Shown: one piece after another, positions 623 through 34,588 of the stretch
Position numbering within the stretch: position 1 is the stretch's first letter
Layout of the letters: the number at the start of each line of letters is the position of its first letter
Source: a virus
IMG/VR virus record: IMGVR_UViG_3300045988_073391
Coordinates: 1-54,717 of that record
Strand: one strand, 5' to 3'
Length of the DNA stretch: 54,717 bases
Made by a program: the position numbers and the translations under genes
Notes under the pieces: generated by a model
What the model was told of the DNA's origin: nothing
Databases searched by the model: none
Seen by the model: the letters and a program-made list of their open reading frames with translations, nothing else

Positions 623-1441
623 ATGGAATTATCAAAATATATCAAAAGCACATCTGTTGAACTACAACGTTCTCAGATACACTTCGCATCTTACAACCCA
701 CGCAGGATTTCCGATGAGAGCAAGAAAACGCTTAAAAAAGGCATAAAGAAATTTGGTCTCGCAGGAGGAATTATAGTCAATAAGCGCACAAACTACACCA
801 TCGTTAGCGGTCACCAGCGCATATCAGTGCTTGACGATTTGCAGAAATACGATGAAGAAACTAAGGAAAACGACTACAAAATCCGCGTAGACCTTGTAGA
901 CATTGACGAGAAGAGCGAGAAAGAACTGAATATCCTCACCAACAACCCAAACGCAATGGGTGAATGGGACTTGGAAAGCCTTGCGGCCCTTATCCCTGAT
1001 ATAGACTACAAAGACGCAGGACTGACAGAGGCAGACCTGTCCATGATTGGCTGTGATTATCTTTTCAAGACAGAAGAGGAAAACGACCTAAATAATGCGC
1101 TTGACGACCTTATGCAAGACTCTCTTGAATTGCATGACAAAGAAGTGCAAGCGCGTAAAGAGGAAAGGCAGTCACAACAACGCGAGCAAATTCAGAAAGC
1201 ACAAGAAATTGCAAAAAGCGAGCAGGCGGATTATGATGCAAGAGTGCAGCACATGAAGGACGTAAAGGCACAAGTGCGAGAGAAAGCATCAGAAAAGGCG
1301 GCAGATATGGACGCATACGTTATGCTCTCTTTTGACACATTCAAGGCAAAAGCGGCATTCATGCAGCGTTTCGGTTACAATGAGTATGATAAATTCATCA
1401 AAGGAGAAGTATTCTCCGACCAAGTAGAAAGGATAGACTGA
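623..1441 (+). CDS. ParB/Srx-fold nuclease-domain protein (IbrB-like)
   Basis: N-terminal motifs FASYNPRRIS and YTIVSGHQRISVL. The C-terminal half is acidic and coiled-coil-like. Lies immediately upstream of the terminase genes. Confidence 0.75.
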   Translation: MELSKYIKSTSVELQRSQIHFASYNPRRISDESKKTLKKGIKKFGLAGGIIVNKRTNYTIVSGHQRISVLDDLQKYDEETKENDYKIRVDLVDIDEKSEKELNILTNNPNAMGEWDLESLAALIPDIDYKDAGLTEADLSMIGCDYLFKTEEENDLNNALDDLMQDSLELHDKEVQARKEERQSQQREQIQKAQEIAKSEQADYDARVQHMKDVKAQVREKASEKAADMDAYVMLSFDTFKAKAAFMQRFGYNEYDKFIKGEVFSDQVERID

Positions 1442-2013
1442 TGGCAAAACCAAAGCATGATTATGACAGCGAGAAATTCAGACAGGACATCGCTATCGCA
1501 GCATCAAGCGGCATGACGGACGAGGAAATCGCTGACACCCTCAATCTTAGCCCAGAAGCATTCTCCCGAATGAAAAACGGGAAAATGGACATTTGGAGCG
1601 AAGAAGAGAATGAAAGAAGAGGTGCGAGTATTCGTCAAGTGTTAGCGCGAGCAAGAAGAAAAACCAACGCTATTGTAAGGGGCAGATACCTAAAAGCAGC
1701 ATTGGGAGGTATTAGGGTGAAGAGCAAAACGAAGAGAGCAATTCAGGGTAAATGCCCTGTTTGCGGAGGCACTGACCCCGAATGCACAGAATGCGGCGGT
1801 ACTGGCCAAGTCCTGCTGACGGACAAATCAGTATTGCAAGAAACGGAGAGTGAGACCCCACCCAATATGCAAGCCCTCGCCACATGGCTCTACCACCATG
1901 ACCCGGAATGGAGGAAGATAGAGCGAAACCTTGACGAAGAAGCAGACGATGTGGCCACTGACATCAATCATGGTGTTGACATAGAAAAGTGGATAACGAG
2001 CATGACCAAATGA
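1441..2013 (+). CDS. Putative small terminase subunit with HTH and double CxxCxGxG zinc knuckle
   Basis: 1-nt and 4-nt overlaps with flanking genes. HTH-like segment MTDEEIADTLNLSPEAFSRM and zinc-knuckle segment CPVCGGTDPECTECGGTGQV. Position directly before terL. Confidence 0.55.
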   Translation: MAKPKHDYDSEKFRQDIAIAASSGMTDEEIADTLNLSPEAFSRMKNGKMDIWSEEENERRGASIRQVLARARRKTNAIVRGRYLKAALGGIRVKSKTKRAIQGKCPVCGGTDPECTECGGTGQVLLTDKSVLQETESETPPNMQALATWLYHHDPEWRKIERNLDEEADDVATDINHGVDIEKWITSMTK

Positions 2014-3284
2014 TACAGACGCAACCGATATACAATCCCCTGTATTTAGACAAAGAGCATTTCATAATTCTGATTACAGGAGGGCGAGGAAGCGGTAAGA
2101 GTTTCAATGCCGCAGCCTTCATAGAAAGGCTGACATTTGAACTTACTCCAGAAGAACGTCTTGTGCATAACATACTTTACACTCGCTATACAATGATTTC
2201 TGCTGCAATATCCGTTATCCCCGAAATGCAGGAGAAAATAGAACTTGATGGTACTTCCAAATACTTTTCTGTAAAGTCGGCAGACATCGTGAACAAGATG
2301 ACTGGCAGCCATATCATGTTCCGCGGCATCAAGACAAGCAGCGGCAATCAGACTGCAAAGCTTAAATCAATACACGGCATAACGACATTTGTCTGTGATG
2401 AGGCAGAAGAGTGGACAAGTGAGGAGGACTTCGACAAGATTATGTTGTCAATCCGTCAAAAGGGTATTCAGAACCGTATAATTATCATAATGAACCCAAC
2501 GGACAGTAATCATTTTATCTATCGGAAGTACATTGAGAAGACTCACAAATTGGTTGAATATGACGGTGTGCCCGTGCAGATAAGTACACACCCGAATGTA
2601 CTGCACATACATACGACATATCTTGACAACAAGGAGCATCTAAGCGAGCAGTTTGTAAAAGAAGTGCGTGACATGAAGGAGAATGCTCCCGAAAAGTATG
2701 CACATATAGTAATGGGGCGTTGGGCTGATGTGGCAGAAGGCGCGGTATTCAAAAAATGGGGTATTGTTGACGAGTTTCCAGAAGAAGCCAAGAAGCAGGC
2801 AATCGGCCTTGACTTCGGATATGCGCAAGACCCGTCAGCGGCTATCAGATGCGGCATAGTGGACAATCGTCTATACCTTGATGAGATATTCTATCGCAAA
2901 GGAATGCTTGCGCGTGATTTGGTTGAAGAGTTGAGACCTTACAATCTTCACGTCATCGCAGATAGCGCAGACCCGCGTCTGATACAAGAAATATCCCTTG
3001 GAGGTATCATAATCTACCCCGTGCAGAAAGGGCCTGGTTCTATACTTGCAGGTATTGACAAAATGCAGTCGCTGGAAATATACGTTACACGCAGGTCTTA
3101 CAATCTGCAAGGTGAGATGCGAAACTACATTTGGGCAAAGGATAAGGACGGGAGATATATAAACGAGCCAGAGGACCATGACAATCACGGAATAGATGCT
3201 GGCAGATATTATGTGTTGGGGCAGTTGCTTGGCCGTGTCATGAGACCGAAAGCAGTATCAAAAGAAGACTTGGGAATATTTTAG
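2010..3284 (+). CDS. terL: Terminase large subunit (PBSX/Terminase_3-like)
   Basis: Walker A ILITGGRGSGKSF and Walker B FVCDEAEE. ATG 2010 overlaps the upstream TGA; the track's GTG at 1989 is the alternative start. Confidence 0.9.
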   Translation: MIQTQPIYNPLYLDKEHFIILITGGRGSGKSFNAAAFIERLTFELTPEERLVHNILYTRYTMISAAISVIPEMQEKIELDGTSKYFSVKSADIVNKMTGSHIMFRGIKTSSGNQTAKLKSIHGITTFVCDEAEEWTSEEDFDKIMLSIRQKGIQNRIIIIMNPTDSNHFIYRKYIEKTHKLVEYDGVPVQISTHPNVLHIHTTYLDNKEHLSEQFVKEVRDMKENAPEKYAHIVMGRWADVAEGAVFKKWGIVDEFPEEAKKQAIGLDFGYAQDPSAAIRCGIVDNRLYLDEIFYRKGMLARDLVEELRPYNLHVIADSADPRLIQEISLGGIIIYPVQKGPGSILAGIDKMQSLEIYVTRRSYNLQGEMRNYIWAKDKDGRYINEPEDHDNHGIDAGRYYVLGQLLGRVMRPKAVSKEDLGIF

Positions 3285-3287
3285 CTT

Positions 3288-4727
3288 ATGAACTTAATCG
3301 AACAAATTATAACCTTGTTCAAGAGCAAGGTGCTTGATTCTGGAGGCGCAGAAAAAAGCGTGTATGAGTACTTGCAAGAGGGCAAAGTGCTCAAGGCTGT
3401 AAGTATGATGCAGGACAGAGATGACGAGGTGGACAATGCTTTGAGGGAATATAACCCCGAATTGCACGAGGTGATGAGGCGTCCTAACAAGTTCAGAAAA
3501 AAAATGTCGCCTTACATCTCTGAAAAGCTACCTCGGAACAGACAAGATTACATCAATGAAGTAGAATTGTTTTTCTTGCTTGGCAACCCTATCATCTGGA
3601 AGAAAATAAGCGGAGATGATGAAGCATATAAGCTCTTTACGGACTTCCTTGATGAACAATTCTATCATGACAACTTGTGCCAGGCAAAACGCCTTGCCGG
3701 GGCAGAAACGGAAAGTGCAAAACTTTACCACATCACGCGCAAGAACGGGAAGATAAACGTGAAGACTGTTATACTGTCTCGTTCAAACGGGTACAAGTTG
3801 CGCCCTTTGATTGACCAATATGGGAATATGCAGGCTTTTGCATACGGATATGTCTTGAAGGAAGGCGGCCGTAATGTGCAGCATTGGGATTTTGAAACGT
3901 CCGATTTTCTCTTCTTCTGCAAGAGCGGCATAGGGGGCTGGGAGGTAACGACATATCCCAATCCTACTGGTAAGATAAATGTGATTTACTATCAGCAGAG
4001 AAAGGCATGGCATGGTGTTGAACAGCGTCTGAAACGGGACGAGATGCTTGACAGCAAAACGGCAGACACGAACAACTATTTTGCCGACCCTCTCGCTAAG
4101 GCTTCCGCAGATGTAATACAGAGCATGACAAGCCCGGAAACAATAGGAGGACTTATACAGACAACAGGAGAAAATTCCGTTTTTGAGTACATAAATCCAC
4201 CGCAATCAAGCGAGAGCAGAGAGTCGGAAAAAAGAAGCCTCAACACGTCAATTTTGTTTGACACTTACACGCCTGACCTTTCTTATGATAATTTGAAAGG
4301 AATGGGAAGCCTCAGCGGTGTCGCAATAAAGAACTCCATGACCATAGGTTATATCAAGAGAAACCGCAACATCGGAGTCTATAAGCAGCTTGTGCGTAGG
4401 GATTTGCATTTAATGCTTGAAATCCTTGTGTTGCTGCACCCAGAAAAGGCCGATGACATTCGAGGGCTAAAGATTGACTTTGAATTTGCAGAGCCTTTTG
4501 ACAGTGATAACGGAGAAAACCAAAGCAGAATTGCTGACCTTTATCAGAAGGGTGTTGTATCATTAGAGGAAGCTGTAAGGCAACTTGCAATTTGCGATGA
4601 TGTAAATTCAGAAATCAAACGACTAAAGGACGCTGAAAAGAATAACACGGAAGCATCTAAATCCGAAGAAACGAACAATAACAATAATACGAAACCCGTC
4701 GAAATACCTATAAAAGAGAAAAACTAA
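3288..4727 (+). CDS. Portal protein
   Basis: 479 aa, directly after terL, with an acidic/Asn-rich C-terminus. Called from size and synteny. Confidence 0.8.
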   Translation: MNLIEQIITLFKSKVLDSGGAEKSVYEYLQEGKVLKAVSMMQDRDDEVDNALREYNPELHEVMRRPNKFRKKMSPYISEKLPRNRQDYINEVELFFLLGNPIIWKKISGDDEAYKLFTDFLDEQFYHDNLCQAKRLAGAETESAKLYHITRKNGKINVKTVILSRSNGYKLRPLIDQYGNMQAFAYGYVLKEGGRNVQHWDFETSDFLFFCKSGIGGWEVTTYPNPTGKINVIYYQQRKAWHGVEQRLKRDEMLDSKTADTNNYFADPLAKASADVIQSMTSPETIGGLIQTTGENSVFEYINPPQSSESRESEKRSLNTSILFDTYTPDLSYDNLKGMGSLSGVAIKNSMTIGYIKRNRNIGVYKQLVRRDLHLMLEILVLLHPEKADDIRGLKIDFEFAEPFDSDNGENQSRIADLYQKGVVSLEEAVRQLAICDDVNSEIKRLKDAEKNNTEASKSEETNNNNNTKPVEIPIKEKN

Positions 4728-4759
4728 AGAAAAATCGAACAATGTTTTGATAATTCAGG

Positions 4760-4791
4760 GAGCCGCATCGTCTGTGAAGATAGTGCGGCTC
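4760..4791. terminator. Bidirectional hairpin between convergent portal and HTH genes
   Basis: GAGCCGCA (4760-4767) pairs with TGCGGCTC (4784-4791). Confidence 0.6.
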
Positions 4792-4802
4792 TCTGGATTT
4801 TT

Positions 4803-5048
4803 CTATTCAAGTTTAATTTTAACGGGCTTCCCACAATGTGGGCAAATAGCAGTTGTCATATTTTCTCCGTCCTCGTCTGCAAAAAACTCTGACATAGAGC
4901 AGCCTATAACATTTGCTATTTCCCTAAGCCTGGAAGTTGTAGGGTTAGAAGATATAGATTGGCTCAATGCACTTTGGGAGCATTCAAGGCTTTCTGCAAC
5001 TTGTGATATTGTGAAGCCATGTTTTTTGATTACTTGTTTTATATTCAT
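4803..5048 (-). CDS. XRE-type HTH regulator with C-terminal CxxC tail
   Basis: HTH segment FTISQVAESLECSQSALSQSISS and tail AICPHCGKPVKIKLE. It is a lone minus-strand gene inside the head module, divergent from the amidoligase gene. Confidence 0.75.
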   Translation of the reverse strand: MNIKQVIKKHGFTISQVAESLECSQSALSQSISSNPTTSRLREIANVIGCSMSEFFADEDGENMTTAICPHCGKPVKIKLE

Positions 5049-5061
5049 TTTATCTAATAAA

Positions 5062-5084
5062 TTTAGTACTGCAAAGATAGTACT
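5062..5084 (-). promoter_or_regulatory. Promoter/operator of the HTH gene
   Basis: The reverse strand reads TATCTTTG (plus-strand 5072-5079), about 24 nt before the ATG at 5048. It is flanked by two AGTACT palindromes (5065-5070, 5079-5084). Confidence 0.55.
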
Positions 5085-5210
5085 TATTTTATTATTATAT
5101 AAGAGTAAGCCAATAAAGAAAGAGCAAAAATAAGGTTTAATGTATATTTGGTTTTGTGTTAAATCTTAGTTAATCCTAATAATTTATTTGGATTTAGAAG
5201 AAAAACCTAA

Positions 5211-5218
5211 TACCTTTG
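5211..5218 (+). promoter_or_regulatory. TAnnTTTG box upstream of the amidoligase gene
   Basis: TACCTTTG, 65 nt upstream of ATG 5283. Confidence 0.5.
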
Positions 5219-5282
5219 CATCGTAATCAAAAAACAAAACCTTAGAACTCAAGGCAAGAGCATAAATACCGCCACCTATACA

Positions 5283-6152
5283 ATGAAGACTCTTTCAGAA
5301 ATGGTAAACGAAATCAAAGGTGCTAACATGAGCAAGGCAGACAAGAAGAAGGCAATCTTGTCACTGGGCTTCACTGAATATGAAGCAACATTGCTGACAG
5401 GCGAGAGCGCAAAGGTCGTACGTGGCAAGGCCGCAACATACACCTTTGGTGTAGAGATAGAAATGCTTGTGCCATCTGGTGCAATCAGAGAGAGAGCCAC
5501 AGCGAATAACTTGCCAATTCGTTATGAGGGCTATAATCATACAGACAACAAGCGATACTTTAAGTTTGTTTCTGATGCGTCTATACAAGGTGCGAACCCT
5601 ATTGAATGTGTATCGCCCATTCTTTCTTCTCGCGGTGGCATGAAGATGTTAGAGAATGCGTGCAAGACGATAAATGAAGCAGGCGCACAGGTAAATCGTT
5701 CTACAGGCTTGCACGTGCATATCGGTGCGGCTGGCCTTACAGATGAGCAGTATTGTAATGTATTTCAAAATTACAAGATGCTTGAAAGCGTTATTGACTC
5801 ATTCATGGCAAATTCAAGACGTGCAAACAATTCAAGATGGTGCAGAACTTTGCAAGACCATACGTTTTACAATGAACTGACAAAAGAGAACCTTTTGATT
5901 GAGATGGGGTGCGATAGATACCACAAGGTGAACCCTTGCAGCTATCAGAGACATCAGACGATAGAATTTCGCCAGCATCAAGGTAGCACAGATTTCACGA
6001 AGATTTCTAATTGGGTAAAGTTCTGCGCTAAGTTAGTTGAATGGTCAAAGACAAACAGACTTGAAAGCCCTGTTTCGTCAATCGACGAAATAGAATTTTT
6101 GAGCAAGACAGAAAAGTCTTTCTTCAAGAATAGAGCATCTCAATTAGCATAA
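5283..6152 (+). CDS. Amidoligase_2-type (glutamine-synthetase-like) COOH-NH2 ligase
   Basis: Motifs TFGVEIEM, IECVSPIL, TGLHVHIG and TIEFRQHQGS match the putative amidoligase family signature as I recall it. Confidence 0.8.
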   Translation: MKTLSEMVNEIKGANMSKADKKKAILSLGFTEYEATLLTGESAKVVRGKAATYTFGVEIEMLVPSGAIRERATANNLPIRYEGYNHTDNKRYFKFVSDASIQGANPIECVSPILSSRGGMKMLENACKTINEAGAQVNRSTGLHVHIGAAGLTDEQYCNVFQNYKMLESVIDSFMANSRRANNSRWCRTLQDHTFYNELTKENLLIEMGCDRYHKVNPCSYQRHQTIEFRQHQGSTDFTKISNWVKFCAKLVEWSKTNRLESPVSSIDEIEFLSKTEKSFFKNRASQLA

Positions 6153-6161
6153 CAATAACCA

Positions 6162-6187
6162 GAGCGTGCAAGGCATCTTGCACGCTC
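6162..6187 (+). terminator. 11-bp hairpin after the amidoligase gene (no T-run)
   Basis: GAGCGTGCAAG, loop gcat, CTTGCACGCTC. Confidence 0.4.
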
Positions 6188-6203
6188 ACAAATCAAGATA
6201 ACA

Positions 6204-6377
6204 ATGATTAAGCAGCATACGAAAGACGAGTATTTTGTAAAGAGAATAAGAGGTAAATACTATGCAGTAGTAAACAAGTATAACATGAATGTGTGTTACC
6301 TCGCATTTTCTAAGAGTGAAGCAAATGTAGAATGCTCTCATATAAACAAGCTAAATAACGACTATTATAATCTATAA
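6204..6377 (+). CDS. 57-aa ORF between amidoligase and amidotransferase (not in the ORF track)
   Basis: ATG 6204 to TAA 6375-6377 (MIKQHTKDEYFVKRIRGKYYAVVNKYN...). Fills the gap between the two enzymes. Confidence 0.3.
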   Translation: MIKQHTKDEYFVKRIRGKYYAVVNKYNMNVCYLAFSKSEANVECSHINKLNNDYYNL

Positions 6378-6382
6378 CAAAT

Positions 6383-6895
6383 ATGTGTGTACTCATATAT
6401 AAACCAGCAGGCGTAACGATGCCTGCGAAGAGAATATTAAAGGCTTGCTTTGACGCAAACCCTCATGGTGCAGGATTTGCAACACCTGATTGCGTGCATC
6501 ATTCAATGAGATTTGAGAGCATCTATAAAGGGCTGAAAAGTGTGCCTAAAGAGATGCCTTGTATCATTCATTTCAGGCTTGCTACGCATGGGTCTATAAG
6601 GCTGCGTAATTGTCACCCTTTTAAGATTGAGCAAACATATTTTGCCCATAATGGTGTTTTGTCATTGCCAACAAAGAATGATATGACAGACAGCGAGACA
6701 GCATTCAGAATGCTTTATCCAGCTATTAAGAGAGGTGGTTTATATAGTCAAGAATTAGACCGCAATGTGCGCCAAATAATTGGCACATCAAAATTCGCAT
6801 TCATGTGCGGCAAAGATGTGCGGCTATTTGGTGATTTCAAAAAGATTGATGGTGTGTATTACTCAAACCTAAGATGGCGTAATTACTTATTATAA
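6383..6895 (+). CDS. Class II (Ntn, Cys1) glutamine amidotransferase-like thiol amidohydrolase
   Basis: Starts MCVLIYKPAG (Cys at position 2 would be the N-terminal nucleophile). Also HFRLATHGS, NCHPF and FAHNGVL. Confidence 0.8.
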   Translation: MCVLIYKPAGVTMPAKRILKACFDANPHGAGFATPDCVHHSMRFESIYKGLKSVPKEMPCIIHFRLATHGSIRLRNCHPFKIEQTYFAHNGVLSLPTKNDMTDSETAFRMLYPAIKRGGLYSQELDRNVRQIIGTSKFAFMCGKDVRLFGDFKKIDGVYYSNLRWRNYLL

Positions 6896-6917
6896 TATGC
6901 TTGATTTCTAAGGTTTT

Positions 6918-6950
6918 GCCCCTAAATGCTTAGGCGTTTAGGGGCTTTTT
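6918..6950 (+). terminator. Rho-independent terminator
   Basis: GCCCCTAAA (6918-6926) pairs with TTTAGGGGC (6937-6945), followed by TTTTT. Confidence 0.75.
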
Positions 6951-7014
6951 GTTTACAATCGCACAAGTAAAAGGGTTGGCAGATAAATGTGTCCTGTATT
7001 GGTTCTTAGATGCT

Positions 7015-7022
7015 TATCTTTG
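7015..7022 (+). promoter_or_regulatory. TAnnTTTG box upstream of the scaffold gene
   Basis: TATCTTTG, 28 nt before ATG 7050. Confidence 0.5.
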
Positions 7023-7049
7023 TGTATCTCTGAAATATGATATACGTAT

Positions 7050-7775
7050 ATGGTAGAAAAGATTTTTAATGCACTAAAACAAGAGTTTTCGTACCTTGGG
7101 TTAGGTGATTCGGTTCTGAGACCTTATGCAGAGTCTCTTGGTGCTTGTGGCTTTGTGACTGATGACAATCTTAATGATGTTGTATCAAAGCAAAAAAGCA
7201 GCCTTGAAGCAATCCAAAAGGCAAATGACAAAAGGGCTGCCGATGCGATGAAAACAGCAGAAGAAAAGGCTGAAGCCAAGCGCAAGGCAGCAGAAGAAGC
7301 CGAAGCAAAGAAAGCAGAAGAAGCCGCAAAGAAGGCCGAAGAAGAAAAGGCCAAAAAAGCAGCAGAAGAAAAAGCCGTTGAAAATAAGGAAGATACTCCT
7401 GAATGGTTCAAGGCTTATCAAACCGCGCAAGAGGAAAAATTCAAGGAAGCTCTTGAAAAGAACAAGGCTCTTGAAGACTCTCTGAAAAGTCTCCAAGACG
7501 AAAACGCCAAATTCAAGACAGAACAAGATGCGGCCAAACGTAATTCCTTTATCGCGTCAGAAGCCAAGAGGTTGGGCGTACCGGAATGGCGTTCCAAGGA
7601 GGGCTTTAGCATCTCAACGGATATGGATGAAAAAGCAATCACGGAATACCTCTCTCAAGTTGCGAACAATGTGAAGGCGAATATGCTCCCCGAAGAAAAA
7701 ATGGGGTTCCCTAAATTTGACGGCAAGGCAACAAAGGAAGAAGTTGATAAAATTGCCGATAACCTATTAAAGTAA
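7050..7775 (+). CDS. Scaffolding protein (putative)
   Basis: Ala/Glu/Lys-rich coiled-coil sequence (AEEKAEAKRKAAEEAEAKKAEEAAKK). Lies just upstream of the capsid genes. Confidence 0.65.
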   Translation: MVEKIFNALKQEFSYLGLGDSVLRPYAESLGACGFVTDDNLNDVVSKQKSSLEAIQKANDKRAADAMKTAEEKAEAKRKAAEEAEAKKAEEAAKKAEEEKAKKAAEEKAVENKEDTPEWFKAYQTAQEEKFKEALEKNKALEDSLKSLQDENAKFKTEQDAAKRNSFIASEAKRLGVPEWRSKEGFSISTDMDEKAITEYLSQVANNVKANMLPEEKMGFPKFDGKATKEEVDKIADNLLK

Positions 7776-7782
7776 AAAACAA

Positions 7783-8187
7783 ATGGCACTTACAGATTTG
7801 ACAAATCCTCGTTCAGTTGTTGATTTTGGAAATGACGCAGTCGTTTGCCCTCAGTTTATATCGGGCATTGATGGAGGCCGTTCGCTTGATGTGACCGGGT
7901 ACACAGATGCTGTCATCAAGGCTGGACACGTAATAATCAAAGACACTAAGAAGGGAGACTATAAGCCGATGCCAGTAGCAAGCGGTAACTATGGAACACT
8001 GCCAGAAAACCACGAATACGTCGGTGTACTTTATAAAAGCATTCCGACGAATGCTCCGATGGCGTCTATCATGACCAATGGCAAGGTAAATTCGGTGGCA
8101 GCTCCTTATAAGATGGACACTATATTGGAAGCATTCAGCAATGCAGTACCCTTTATTGCTTTTGTTAGTGCAGAAGATGAAGTTTGA
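7783..8187 (+). CDS. Head decoration-like protein (putative)
   Basis: 134 aa immediately before the gpE-like capsid gene, mirroring the lambda D-E order. Confidence 0.4.
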   Translation: MALTDLTNPRSVVDFGNDAVVCPQFISGIDGGRSLDVTGYTDAVIKAGHVIIKDTKKGDYKPMPVASGNYGTLPENHEYVGVLYKSIPTNAPMASIMTNGKVNSVAAPYKMDTILEAFSNAVPFIAFVSAEDEV

Positions 8188-8204
8188 TTAAACAGATATA
8201 AAAC

Positions 8205-9296
8205 ATGGAACAATCACTATATTTTGAACTGGTAAAAAAGTATTTTCCGCAGCTTGTTCTCTCTGTCGTAGAGAAAGTTAATAGTAAGAGCGGAAATGCC
8301 GCATTAACCTATCTCTATAAAGACTATCTCACCCCGAAGTATGCGGCAGATGGCCGTTGGGCGAGCATCATGGCGGACTATAACCGTGTGGCTGCTGATG
8401 TGGTGGCTCTGTCTTCTCCCCTCCCCGTAAAAAGTCGTGAAGCCTTGGAGACTGTTTCAGGCAAATTGCCGAAACTCGGTTTGAAGCTGATGCTTGGCGA
8501 ACAGGAGATGAAGAACATTGACAATCTTCTTCGCCAACCAAACGCGAATATCAACCTCATAGTCGAGAAGGTCTTTAATGATACTCCAAGAGTAATTACT
8601 GCGATTTATGAGCGACTGGAAGATATGTTCCTTTCTGGTCTTTCAACTGGTATTGCTCTTGCTCCACGCAATGAGGGTACTGGCATTCGCATCAATTACG
8701 GCTACAAGGACACGAATAAATTCGGTGTGAAAATCCTGTGGGACGGAAATGCTGACACTGCACTTATTCTTGACGACATTCAGCGTGTTGTTGACAAGGC
8801 AGAACTTGAAGATGGCAACAAACTTCGTCACATCTTTGTTGATGATGTATGGCTTCGTGATTTCTATAAGAACAAGCAAGTGCGCGAGCAGTATGCCTTC
8901 AACATGGACTTTGTAGGCACAAATATCCCAGTATTGGATTTTGAGAAGGCTGCATCGGTTGTCAAGAAGCGTTGGGACGTGGAACTTCACCGCGTCAGCC
9001 GTTCAATCAAGACGGAAATAAATGGCGTGCGCAAGGTTCATACTCCGTGGCAGAAGGGCGTGGCTGTATTCGCCTGTGATGACAAGTTAGGCTCTATTGT
9101 ATGGACCGATGTTGCAGAGCAGAGCCGCAGGGTGAATGGTGTTACGTATGAAAACGCAGACGACTATATCCTTGTATCAAAGTACTCTAAGAACGACCCT
9201 CTCGAAGAGATTACGGCTTCGCAGGCCATGGTCGCTCCGATTGTGGATAATGTTGACCGCATATACACACTTGATTCAAAGAAGCAGCAGGCATGA
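8205..9296 (+). CDS. Major capsid protein (lambda gpE-like family)
   Basis: 363 aa. Called from position and the N-terminal region WASIMADYNRVAADVVALSSPLPVKSRE, typical of capsid protein E family members. Confidence 0.8.
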   Translation: MEQSLYFELVKKYFPQLVLSVVEKVNSKSGNAALTYLYKDYLTPKYAADGRWASIMADYNRVAADVVALSSPLPVKSREALETVSGKLPKLGLKLMLGEQEMKNIDNLLRQPNANINLIVEKVFNDTPRVITAIYERLEDMFLSGLSTGIALAPRNEGTGIRINYGYKDTNKFGVKILWDGNADTALILDDIQRVVDKAELEDGNKLRHIFVDDVWLRDFYKNKQVREQYAFNMDFVGTNIPVLDFEKAASVVKKRWDVELHRVSRSIKTEINGVRKVHTPWQKGVAVFACDDKLGSIVWTDVAEQSRRVNGVTYENADDYILVSKYSKNDPLEEITASQAMVAPIVDNVDRIYTLDSKKQQA

Positions 9297-30068: not shown

Positions 30069-31163
30069 TTACCTAATAGGTAAAGCTTTTGTTCCCTTAA
30101 GATTGTAGCAACCAGTGTCATGCTTATATCTCCATATTACCACATCTTCTGACAGGGACTTTTCTTTCGCCATCTTTTTAAGATGCGGAACGATGGAAGC
30201 AAAACCTTGTGGCATTTCGCTCCTGCTGATTTCTTTCCATATATGAGGTGGTATCAAAGCATCAGCAGCGAATTTATTAGCTTCGCTCTCTAAGTCCGTA
30301 TTCTTATTGCAATCAGAAGAGATAAACCCTGAATGCTCTCCTTTCCTTAAATGTAAAGATATGTGCCCAAGTTCGTGCAATACATTAAAGACAAGGCGGC
30401 TCATATCATTGTATCTGTTCGTTGTCACGATAGATGGGTATTCGTTCTTCCAGAAAGAGAAAGCATCAACAGGAACACGTTCTATTTTTCTGACAACAGA
30501 ATATGAGATGCCCAAGTCGCTAAGGATAGACTTCATCTTTGTTTGGGTTAATGTGCCTTTATTCATCTCAGATGAGATATAACCAGCTGCTTTATCTGCA
30601 TTTCCTTCTTCATAAGGTTTTTGAGGGGCATTATTGTTAGCTGATACGTATGAGAGTAACAACCACGTGTTTAAGTTCTTTTCGTCTGTCGTTAGCTTTT
30701 CGCTTTTCTTAAAAGCACCATTAGGAATAAGAGCAGGAATCTGTATTGGTTCTACGTGAAAGGCACTCCTAAGCATATCTAATTTGTCTTGCACAAAAAT
30801 AGACGCACGAATGCTTAGTTGCGAATACAGATAAGGAAGATTTAATACGTTATGCAGGCTTGTTTCAACTGTTATTGCAGACCGTTCTTCTTCCTCTCTT
30901 TGTGCTATTGCAGCGCAATCTTTGTCATATTGCAGTTGCAGGCTTATCCAATAATCTGCTGGAATACCAAGAGCTTGTTCAAGTTTTCTTGCTATGTCAA
31001 CAGATATGGACGTGCCACCTCTAAGCAATCTGCTAAGATTAGCCTGCTGAATGTTCATGCGTGTGGCGAGTTCCTTTTTACTCATTCCACGCGCTTTTAA
31101 CTCATCCTTTACTAATTCAACTGGATGTGTTGCTTCAAACGGAGTAATGTTATTTGTCGCCAT
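30069..31163 (-). CDS. HigA-type HTH antitoxin domain fused to an ImmA/IrrE metallopeptidase domain
   Basis: N-terminus FEATHPVELVKDELKARGMSKKELATRMNIQQANLSRLLRG...ADYWISLQLQYD. HExxH motif in NVLHELGHISLH. Confidence 0.8.
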   Translation of the reverse strand: MATNNITPFEATHPVELVKDELKARGMSKKELATRMNIQQANLSRLLRGGTSISVDIARKLEQALGIPADYWISLQLQYDKDCAAIAQREEEERSAITVETSLHNVLNLPYLYSQLSIRASIFVQDKLDMLRSAFHVEPIQIPALIPNGAFKKSEKLTTDEKNLNTWLLLSYVSANNNAPQKPYEEGNADKAAGYISSEMNKGTLTQTKMKSILSDLGISYSVVRKIERVPVDAFSFWKNEYPSIVTTNRYNDMSRLVFNVLHELGHISLHLRKGEHSGFISSDCNKNTDLESEANKFAADALIPPHIWKEISRSEMPQGFASIVPHLKKMAKEKSLSEDVVIWRYKHDTGCYNLKGTKALPIR

Positions 31164-33373: not shown

Positions 33374-34588
33374 TTACTTGTTGAACAAGTCCATAGCCGT
33401 TTTTTTTGCTTTGTCTGCTATATCGATGTAGGGCTTCATGCTCTTGTAATCGGAGTGTCCAGTCCACTTCATCACAACGTTTGGGGCAATTCCAAGCATC
33501 AGCGCATTACAGATAAATGTACGCCTTCCGCTGTGCGTTCCGACCATCTGCCATTTTTCTTTCGTTCCCTCTATTTTTTTTCCACCTATATAATATATAT
33601 CCGTTAGCTTCTCGTTGATACCGCATTGGCGGCACGCCTCCTTGATATATACGTTCATTTTCTGATTTGAGATGACTGGTAGAGCCTTGTCTGTATCGTT
33701 GTCCGCATAACGCTGTAAGATTGTGCGAGAGTAGTTGTTAAGCTCTATTGTAATCTTGTCATTAGTCTTTTGCGTGGTTATGTGTATCGCGTCATCGTAT
33801 ATGTCTGTTTTTTTGAGCGCAGCGGCATCGGAATAGCGCAATGACGTGAAGCAGCAGAAACAGAATATATCGCGTGTGCGTGACAGGTAGGGCTGGTCGA
33901 ACTTGTGGTTATACACTTTCATCAGTTCCTCCCATGTAAGAAATACCACATTGCGGTTGGCACGCTTTAGGTGTGTTCTCTGTGCAGTAAAGGAGATGTC
34001 AGTTAATAAGCCCTTGGCCACAAGCCAGCGAAAAAACCACTTGGACATTGACAGTTTCTTTTTTGTCGTTTCATTCTGGTGGCCGAGGTCCGACTGGAAA
34101 GCTGCAAACTTGTCAAGAGTTTCTGGCTTTATTTTGTCTATACTCATCTCTGCATCGAACATTTTCCATTCTTGCAGTAGCTTCCTGTGCTTATAGACTA
34201 CACTCTTGCCCCAATGACATAATTTGCTCTGCTCGTTAATATATTCTTCGTAGAGGTCAAAGAAACCCTCCTTTTGTGCAGTTTTATTTTCACGCTTAAA
34301 CTCCTTGTCAAGCTCCGCCTTGAAGTCCTCTATTGCAGGCGACTCCTTGAATGAGTTGGCAACGGATTGTATTGTCTCCTCATACCTCTGTATCTCTGCA
34401 TTTATCTTAATTGCAGGAGTAAAGCTCTTTCCGTGAGTTGTGTTGCGCTTGCACCGCTGCATAGTCATGTCCCATTTGCTCTTGTCCACGCTAAACCCGA
34501 GCGAATAAGAGAATTTACGCTTGTTGTAAGTAATGAACACGCGGAGAGAGCCGCGCGCATCAACTGCAAAGGTGTATACGTATTTCAT
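33374..34588 (-). CDS. int: Tyrosine site-specific integrase (Bacteroidota phage/CTn type)
   Basis: 404 aa. C-terminal catalytic region THSGRRTFICNALMLGIAPNVVMKWTGHSDYKSMKPYIDI (R...HxxR...Y). Confidence 0.9.
   Translation of the reverse strand: MKYVYTFAVDARGSLRVFITYNKRKFSYSLGFSVDKSKWDMTMQRCKRNTTHGKSFTPAIKINAEIQRYEETIQSVANSFKESPAIEDFKAELDKEFKRENKTAQKEGFFDLYEEYINEQSKLCHWGKSVVYKHRKLLQEWKMFDAEMSIDKIKPETLDKFAAFQSDLGHQNETTKKKLSMSKWFFRWLVAKGLLTDISFTAQRTHLKRANRNVVFLTWEELMKVYNHKFDQPYLSRTRDIFCFCCFTSLRYSDAAALKKTDIYDDAIHITTQKTNDKITIELNNYSRTILQRYADNDTDKALPVISNQKMNVYIKEACRQCGINEKLTDIYYIGGKKIEGTKEKWQMVGTHSGRRTFICNALMLGIAPNVVMKWTGHSDYKSMKPYIDIADKAKKTAMDLFNK

Follow-up and report, generated by a model that had tools for sequence, protein, structure and literature searches.

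A putative accessory cassette pairing an amidoligase with a minimal Ntn hydrolase between the portal and scaffold genes of a Bacteroidales-type temperate phage

Introduction

The association of Amidoligase_2 ligases with a thiol peptidase resembling class II glutamine amidotransferases (GATases), or with an AIG2/GGCT neighbor, was reportedly predicted by Iyer, Abhiman, Burroughs and Aravind in 2009, and the Pfam description of the ligase family, PF12224, carries the same neighborhood. The pair is annotated in LUZ24-like, phiEco32, OM43, Marvin-like, Porphyromonas, Arthrobacter and Bacillus phages. Here we describe such a pair in the complete 54,717-bp metagenome contig ENA ERZ28578837 scaffold_299 (IMG/VR record IMGVR_UViG_3300045988_073391; hereafter the window, meaning this whole stretch of DNA). 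A ligase gene and a gene for an N-terminal nucleophile (Ntn) hydrolase lie there, together with a divergent helix-turn-helix (HTH) gene, in a block (4752-6945) that separates the portal gene from the scaffold gene and is bounded by terminators. We propose that the block is an accessory cassette whose enzyme pair makes and cleaves a gamma-glutamyl-type amide bond. For this statement as a whole the case for and the case against seem to us evenly balanced, while confidence in the anatomy of the cassette is much higher.

Functions offered for the pair in the literature are all speculative, and comprise cell-wall modification, secondary metabolites, nitrogen metabolism, as which phage amidoligase and GATase genes have been read (PMC10945688, PMC10580990), and DNA hypermodification, since such genes are co-associated with thymidine hypermodification genes (PMC8989533). 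The window pair resembles the described phage systems in the ligase family (by hidden Markov model, HMM), in the pairing with an Ntn-type GATase, and in having GGACT, a gamma-glutamyl cyclotransferase, as the alternative partner. It differs from them in several respects. Its Ntn protein is a minimal domain of 170 aa, compared with 299-486 aa in phages Tesla and UFV-P2. No ATP-grasp or COOH-NH2 ligase accompanies the pair. Finally, a divergent HTH gene is dedicated to the pair, which is found at accessory hot spots in temperate Bacteroidales phages rather than within a block of early genes.

Outside phages, the same two folds are paired in ergothioneine biosynthesis, in which EgtA is a GCS2-type gamma-glutamylcysteine ligase and EgtC a GATase_4 Ntn gamma-glutamyl hydrolase. 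This logic of adding and then removing a gamma-glutamyl group fits the window pair, PuuA/PuuD are related in logic, and YbdK-type ligases top the structural matches of the window ligase. However, no genes like those of the middle steps, EgtB and EgtD, are present in the window cassette, the Ntn protein is only 16-18% identical to EgtC in sequence, and the context is a phage rather than a biosynthetic cluster. GlmS, PurF and AsnB share with the window Ntn protein an N-terminal Cys, the pocket of Arg and Asn-Gly, and the alpha-beta-beta-alpha fold. Unlike these enzymes, the window protein stands alone at 170 aa with no fused synthase domain, and its partner has the glutamine synthetase (GS) fold, which is no known class II synthase domain. 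The loop before its TDSE helix is about 12 residues shorter than in GlmS, as read from unaligned sequences. As for location, the P2/P4-type hot spots and morons share with the window site variable occupancy, toxin-antitoxin, SIR2 and PDC-S26 genes as alternatives, and terminator-flanked cassettes, whereas the window site lies inside a head-gene block and its ligase-Ntn cargo matches no catalogued defense system. Thus, the enzyme pairing itself is already known; what is new is the conserved divergent HTH regulator and the hot-spot cargo context, and these, with the minimal Ntn domain and the behavior as mobile cargo at prophage hot spots, distinguish the window pair.

The ligase and the Ntn hydrolase

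The ligase gene (5283-6152, + strand) encodes 289 aa. The protein matches PF12224 at 1.3e-30 and 107.5 bits against a cut-off of 22, with residues 52-252 covering positions 2-245 of the 245-position profile, and phrog_2443 at 4.4e-59. Its AlphaFold2 model (pLDDT 90.3) was compared with solved structures by Foldseek, and YbdK (1r8g) and GS (8fbp) were retrieved at probability 1.0 with TMq of 0.41-0.46. Gamma-glutamyl-amine ligases, namely 1-naphthylamine GS (8wwu) and gamma-glutamylmethylamide synthetase (9qur), are among the neighbors, and viral amidoligases match the model better, with TMq up to 0.73. A profile search against PDB sequences gave no real match. The motifs GVEIE, GLHVHI and TIEFRQHQG are invariant in the relatives, as are E58, E60, H144, H146, E228 and R230, and these motifs are apparently of the metal- and phosphate-binding type expected of the fold. 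The protein is therefore modeled as a minimal carboxylate-amine ligase of the GS/GCS2 fold, in line with the Amidoligase_2 assignment in the original prediction, which both the Pfam score and the GS-type fold bear out. Residues 1-40 form a lineage-specific three-helix domain; a Pfam scan of the N-terminal 49-51 residues with E-values up to 10 found nothing there.

The Ntn gene (6383-6895, + strand) encodes a Cys-Ntn protein of 170 aa that starts with Met-Cys. GATase_4 is matched at 1.6e-6 (27.7 bits against a cut-off of 23) over residues 60-122 only. The AlphaFold2 model (pLDDT 95.7) has the Ntn alpha-beta-beta-alpha fold, and its Foldseek matches are the GlmS glutaminase (1xff and 3ooj, TMq 0.69), EgtC (4zfk, TMq 0.68) and PurF (0.6); over the EgtC structures 4zfj, 4zfk and 4zfl, TMq is 0.61-0.69. 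M1, C2, R65, T68, N90, G91 and D103 are invariant in 42 homologues. A profile alignment places R65, T68, H69, N90 and G91 on R73, T76, H77, N98 and G99 of GlmS; the GlmS sequence used with hhalign was approximate, verified at residues 68-102 only. D103, in the sequence TDSE, corresponds to the expected alpha-amino-binding Asp by motif only, as hhalign stopped at residue 94 and its comparison with GlmS D123 falls outside the alignment. In the terms of class II amidotransferases, Cys2 would be the nucleophile, Arg65 the clamp for the alpha-carboxylate, and Asn90-Gly91 the oxyanion hole. With these elements conserved, the pocket should take free glutamine or a gamma-glutamyl head group. By its model, the protein is probably a minimal Cys-Ntn hydrolase of the class II GATase fold with Cys2 as the nucleophile, and here too the score above the cut-off, the fold and the invariant M1-C2 support the earlier assignment.

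The same features would suit a two-subunit glutamine-dependent amidotransferase, in which the Ntn protein releases ammonia from glutamine and the ligase activates a carboxylate of the target with ATP to form an amide, following the logic of AsnB or MurT/GatD. The glutaminase site of Cys2, Arg65 and Asn90-Gly91 is invariant, TDSE stands where the alpha-amino-binding Asp is expected, and the closest solved structures, GlmS and PurF, are true glutaminase domains. The two genes are also tightly coupled, with 4-nt overlaps at some loci, and the nucleophile used ancestrally by the GS fold is ammonia. However, the Ntn model is matched equally well by EgtC, which is a pure hydrolase, and by GlmS. In Firmicute phages, such as Bacillus phage 035JT001, the gene near the ligase encodes a GGACT gamma-glutamyl cyclotransferase, which makes no ammonia, and a fusion of Ntn and GGACT exists, while no fusion of Ntn and ligase was seen. 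Mycobacteriophage Tesla, considered as a candidate for such a fusion, has two adjacent genes, gp108 and gp109. We regard the amidotransferase explanation as somewhat unlikely.

The gamma-glutamyl reading is favored because the Ntn pocket suits a free gamma-glutamyl or glutamine head group, because GGACT occurs both near the ligase of Bacillus phages and in the Ntn fusion and breaks gamma-glutamyl amides, and because the nearest solved ligases include gamma-glutamyl-amine ligases. The fusion was found in an environmental podophage (MW202828.1, locus L241, 3001-4218), where a 405-aa protein has an N-terminal GATase_4-type Ntn domain joined to GGACT; the 574-aa protein encoded upstream of it has no Pfam match.

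Conservation of the gene pair and its neighbors

About 240 related loci were compared in total, and about 150 of them, taken from IMG/VR and GTDB genomes, encode relatives of the ligase at 39-100% identity. Open reading frames (ORFs) were called from the first ATG and classed by blastp or HMM at 1e-3, and all counts are of loci, not of independent events. Nearly all ligase loci belong to phages or prophages of Bacteroidales, including Prevotella, Phocaeicola, Muribaculaceae, Alistipes and Paludibacteraceae. In 138 of 154 loci, the Ntn gene directly neighbors the ligase gene; the two overlap by 4 nt in 26 loci, and in most the gap is at most 90 nt. A same-family HTH gene lies within 1.5 kb upstream of the ligase, always on the opposite strand, in 97 of the 131 loci that have enough upstream sequence for the count. 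Thus, the ligase and Ntn genes travel together, and the HTH gene is usually with them.

The cassette is found in two layouts. The commoner one, which most relatives have (ligase identity 55-66%), has the order HTH gene (minus strand), ligase and Ntn genes, then ASCH, PAPS reductase, ParB, terminase and portal genes; this version sometimes lies directly beside an integrase gene. In the layout of the window, shared with about 40 other loci (39-50% ligase identity), the cassette is preceded by the portal gene and followed by genes for scaffold, a decoration-like protein and the major head protein.

Several other genes recur around the cassette. At L014, which has the commoner layout, the HTH operon continues with a gene for a 179-aa zinc-ribbon protein (6019-6558, minus strand), and at a greater distance a 744-aa type IIG-like restriction-modification protein is encoded (913-3147, minus strand). 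At L199, a 179-aa protein is likewise encoded beside the HTH gene on the same strand. A 109-aa WYL_2 (PF10902) Sm-like SH3 protein is encoded at L004 (2682-3011) and at 35 other loci, often immediately upstream of the ligase gene or immediately downstream of the Ntn gene; the window cassette lacks it.

The regulator, promoters and terminators

In the window, the cassette runs in the order terminator, XRE-type HTH gene on the minus strand, divergent promoter region, then on the plus strand the ligase gene, an optional small ORF and the Ntn gene, and a terminator. All elements that the original prediction listed in this block were found at or near the coordinates it gave, and its HTH, ligase and Ntn assignments hold in Pfam and PHROG searches, those of the enzymes also by fold. 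G+C content is 0.30-0.39 around the HTH gene and 0.34 at the small ORF, compared with 0.43-0.47 in the flanks. The DNA at 4700-7050 has no similarity match among INPHARED phages. An Rfam scan of 4600-7200 gave nothing near threshold, the top score being 30 bits, over a terminator, against a gathering score of 81.

The HTH gene (4803-5048, minus strand) encodes an 81-aa protein of the XRE/Cro-C1 type, with matches to HTH_3 (1.8e-7, above the Pfam cut-off), HTH_26 (1.3e-5) and PHROG transcriptional regulators. Its C-terminus carries a CPHCG knuckle, and a CPxCG knuckle ends 51 of 77 unique homologues. The lone CxxC would suggest metal-bridged dimerization. Other cassette HTH proteins have an alternative beta-rich tail (…GYVKVKGTLYEVHSFEDL…) in place of the knuckle, and the same HTH type is also found with other cargo, at L160 and L161.

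Promoter boxes of the form TAnnTTTG lie in both directions between the HTH and ligase genes. On the minus strand, the predicted -7 box of the HTH promoter, TATCTTTG, is at 5079-5072. It is bracketed by two copies of TAGTACT (5064-5084, with AGTACT cores at 5065-5070 and 5079-5084), which are spanned by an inverted repeat with arms at 5055-5070 and 5079-5094. A variant core in L001, AGCGCT, retains the palindrome. These repeats are a candidate operator overlapping the HTH promoter. On the plus strand, a composite pattern match at 5187-5218 identifies a putative ligase promoter of the Bacteroidetes type, with TTTG of the -33 element at 5187-5190, 20 nt upstream of the -7 box TACCTTTG at 5211-5218. 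The leader that follows, about 60 nt long, is A-rich and unstructured (fold z 0.04), and a riboswitch in it was ruled out on this ground. Both boxes and the flanking AGTACT palindromes thus occur where they had been predicted. In frequency, TAnnTTTG is unremarkable in the window (46 found, 49 expected), and its enrichment was rejected as evidence by itself; the significance of the boxes comes from their conserved positions in relatives. Among 73 unique HTH upstream regions, 60 have the minus-strand box at 10-60 nt from the start of the gene (control, 3.5%), and 52 of 112 unique ligase upstream regions have the plus-strand box at 30-100 nt ahead of the ligase gene (control, 5.3%). Divergent intergenic regions vary in sequence among lineages; the Bacteroidetes -7 box is kept, and lineage-specific inverted or direct repeats surround the promoter boxes.

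The region also has a further repeat. The 14-nt sequence GTAATCAAAAAACA at 5223-5236, 5 nt past the ligase -7 box, is a perfect inverted copy (100% complementary) of 5020-5033, which lies within codons 6-10 of the HTH gene, and the repeat is identical in L237. It may be a second operator, or possibly a 5′ element shared by both mRNAs.

Hairpins bound the block on both sides, as had been claimed. The left one, between the convergent portal (+) and HTH (-) genes, is longer than first given (4752-4799 instead of 4760-4791, by inverted repeat and RNA fold). On the plus strand it has a dG of -33.6 kcal/mol (z -7.9) and is followed by a U-run; on the minus strand it is weaker (-20.1 kcal/mol, z -4.8). 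It resembles an intrinsic terminator that would end the portal transcript. The right boundary is a predicted intrinsic terminator at 6918-6953 (+), made of a 12-bp stem (6918-6945; dG -22.4 kcal/mol, z -5.1) plus TTTTTGTTT. Terminators occur 3′ of the Ntn gene in 11 of 28 unique loci that share the window layout. A third hairpin (6162-6187, +; 11-bp stem, dG -20.5 kcal/mol, z -7.1), which the original prediction had not listed, lies between the ligase and the next gene, has no U-run, and by alignment is kept in relatives that lack the small ORF; it is possibly an RNA processing or stability element, or an attenuator. All three fold far better than shuffled sequence. The stem of the third hairpin is identical in the window, L001 and L002, and the 4-nt loop is GCAT in the window and ATGC in L001 and L002. 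The whole hairpin is therefore an exact reverse complement in those two loci, and the difference looks like inversion of a palindromic element.

With terminators on both sides and its own promoters at conserved positions, the block appears insulated, as the original prediction held. The terminators, the own promoters, the divergent HTH gene and the insertion together make separate, moron-like control of the cassette a reasonable inference. The HTH protein would repress both divergent promoters through the repeats that overlap the -7 boxes, and with such repression the operon would be controlled apart from the late head operon.

The portal-scaffold junction as a cargo site

The insertion was examined at 80 of about 430 portal relatives, with portals 50-59% identical to that of the window. 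In the 38 loci with a recognizable scaffold gene, the portal-scaffold gap is 69, 245, 298 and up to 4464 nt. The ligase occupies this site in 6 of the 38 head modules, and none was detected by blastp in the other 32. Other cargo at the site comprises HicA/HicB, HigB/HigA, Gp49 with an HTH gene, DUF4062, DUF4145, HNH endonucleases, SIR2 (PADLOC Aga_SIR2, 1.7e-17) and PDDEXK_4/PDC-S26 (1.1e-35). SIR2, PDC-S26/PDDEXK_4, DUF4062 and HicAB cargo was located at L165 8280-9458, L173 8399-9547, L196 8814-9797 and L163 7563-8176. As a side observation, the sole cargo in L200 is a methionyl-tRNA-formyltransferase-like gene (7561-8682, minus strand; Formyl_trans_N and Formyl_trans_C), which is unusual for a phage accessory site.

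The short gaps and other cargo in relatives agree with the earlier claim that the block is inserted between the portal and scaffold genes. From the variable gaps and the alternative cargo, the junction is an accessory or defense hot spot, of toxin-antitoxin genes among others, lying within the head-gene block, and the cassette is one cargo among several. To judge from the genomic comparison, it is most simply regarded as a self-contained, moron-type accessory that is variably present and has a predicted promoter and terminator of its own.

The position among head genes raises another explanation, in which the cassette enzymes attach an amino-acid or peptide tag to a virion protein, for example the scaffold, portal or major head protein, and trim it. 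Indeed, it recurs beside head or packaging genes in two layouts, and Porphyromonas phages carry an amidoligase gene after the portal and adaptor genes. However, a virion function fits poorly with the 32 related head modules in which blastp found no ligase, some with gaps of only 69-298 nt, with the terminators and the regulator that set the cassette apart, with toxin-antitoxin and defense genes as its alternatives, and with a small ORF that is unconserved as a tag. The earlier suggestion of a virion target thus finds no support, and we consider this explanation improbable.

The 57-aa ORF

Between the ligase and Ntn genes, the window has a 57-codon ORF (6204-6377, +) with no family match; Pfam (E-values up to 10), PHROG and PADLOC scans gave nothing. 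It is a real coding sequence. Compared with its counterpart in L237 (4001-4174), its length is kept and dN/dS is 0.24. Nucleotide identity in this pair is 78%, compared with 94-95% for the flanking ligase and Ntn genes, which suggests recombinational replacement or fast evolution of an orphan gene. The ORF goes only with ligases at least 97% identical to that of the window, and in one such relative (L002/L157) it is precisely missing, through a 176-nt indel that has ATAACAA repeats on either side. When 1.84 billion representatives were scanned in full with HMMER, just two further clusters of homologues emerged, one in the same slot and one among small genes after an amidase gene in an unrelated phage. 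The ORF is thus an optional orphan insert outside the conserved system. The notion that the small protein is the substrate or a carrier for the ligase does not survive this distribution: it occurs in near-identical relatives only, is deleted in one, and has only two other homologue clusters. Conjugation of a small tag protein in the manner of Pup was rejected as well, since the ORF is unconserved and most loci have no room between the enzyme genes.

Other lineages carry different inserts in the ligase-Ntn gap. A NUMOD4/HNH_3 homing endonuclease gene lies there in L078 (7998-8513), and one is among the hot-spot cargo in L161 (6706-7278). In the LUZ24-like phage UFV-P2, an HNH gene lies between the amidoligase and GATase genes.

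Proposed chemistry and role

In the proposed mechanism, the ligase would first make an acyl-phosphate at the expense of ATP and would then convert it into an amide. Its product would most likely be a gamma-glutamyl amide on an amine-bearing target, which could be a small molecule, a cell-envelope component or a protein. The Ntn enzyme would recognize the free gamma-glutamyl or glutamine head group and cleave that amide, so that, as with EgtA/EgtC or PuuA/PuuD, a gamma-glutamyl group may be attached and taken off again, or processed, by the pair. Such adding and trimming, which the original prediction had proposed, is chemically plausible, and it competes with the model in which the Ntn protein supplies ammonia.

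Two further functions suggested for related genes were weighed. First, the enzymes may modify phage DNA or nucleotides, for example by placing an amino acid onto a hypermodified base. The reported proximity of amidoligase and amidotransferase genes to thymidine hypermodification genes (PMC8989533) points this way, as does the commoner layout, in which the cassette stands by ASCH, PAPS-reductase and ParB genes. However, the window ORFs that were scanned include no gene for dUMP hydroxymethylase, 5-hmdU kinase, aGPT-Pplase or any other hypermodification function, and the gene lists of the loci include none of the first three. The cassette is also optional in close relatives and has its own repressor-like regulator, and a role in DNA modification is very improbable. 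Second, the pair may be an auxiliary metabolic one that rewires glutamine and glutamate nitrogen metabolism of the host, which is the reading given elsewhere for phage amidoligase and GATase genes (PMC10945688, PMC10580990). Here the minimal 289-aa ligase is far from true glutamine synthetase (TMq about 0.45, with no PDB sequence match), a synthetase plus a glutaminase would merely cycle, and the toxin-antitoxin and defense hot-spot context points away from central metabolism. This function is thus very improbable.

For the gamma-glutamyl cassette, genomic context makes a role in lysogen fitness or phage-host conflict more likely than one in capsid assembly, because of the dedicated repressor-like HTH protein, the two terminators and the hot-spot neighbors; the L014 locus, with its type IIG-like restriction-modification gene near the cassette, was counted as part of this cargo-site context. 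In a bolder form, the HTH-controlled pair would be an unrecognized prophage conflict system, for defense, superinfection exclusion or counter-defense. Its target, a phage or host molecule, would be gamma-glutamylated (or amidated) at the expense of ATP and de-glutamylated, and Bacteroidales phages would trade the pair at the same hot spots as toxin-antitoxin, SIR2 and PDC-S26 genes. We consider this bolder form unlikely.

Several points weigh against a gamma-glutamyl pair with a role in conflict. A ligase and a hydrolase acting on the same bond would run a futile cycle unless there is an unseen intermediate step or a second substrate. The ligase resembles GS and YbdK so distantly that its substrate pocket is unreadable from the match, and Asp103 of the Ntn protein was placed by motif. 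Many of the loci compared share one IMG/VR data set as their source and are related to one another. The conflict role is based on location alone, and in PADLOC-DB 2.0 the ligase, the Ntn protein and the 57-aa ORF have no match and the HTH protein meets only generic models. Finally, a search of the literature found no substrate, product, phenotype or experimental function for the ligase family or the pair.

The phage and flanking genes

The window is a temperate siphophage of the Bacteroidales type, a gut prophage. This is concluded from its integrase, HTH-IrrE, ERF recombinase and antirepressor genes together with the gene block from MazG to the portal. The tyrosine integrase is encoded at 33374-34588 (minus strand) and the HTH-IrrE protein at 30069-31163 (minus strand). 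The block consists of genes for MazG, ASCH, PAPS reductase, LPD3, ParB_N, the small and large terminase subunits, and an SPP1-type portal. Its LPD3 (large polyvalent protein-associated domain 3) gene encodes a lone 120-aa protein (144-506, +), between the PAPS-reductase and ParB_N genes and upstream of the terminase genes. Directly before the cassette, the portal gene is at 3288-4727 (+; SPP1_portal 5.8e-19, phrog_64 6.9e-30). After it come the scaffold-like gene from 7050 (phrog_5824) and the major head protein gene at 8205-9296 (phrog_29). A second box with the sequence TATCTTTG lies outside the cassette at 7015-7022 (+), 28 nt upstream of the scaffold start, and is a candidate restart promoter for the head genes.

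Implications

The amidoligase-GATase pair is among the most widespread phage gene pairs found without an assigned function, noted since 2009 and accompanied by conjecture only. A search found 1957 homologues of the ligase, some of whose 90% clusters have hundreds of members, and the Bacteroidales version of the pair is common in gut metagenomes. The present analysis makes a vague annotation concrete, as a compact module that has its own regulator, swaps position as a unit, and shares a cargo site with toxin-antitoxin and defense genes. In addition, the small ORF as a tag and modification of the capsid can be set aside as distractions. If the conflict-system reading is true, the cassette would represent a new enzymatic logic in the warfare between phages and hosts of a major gut phylum.

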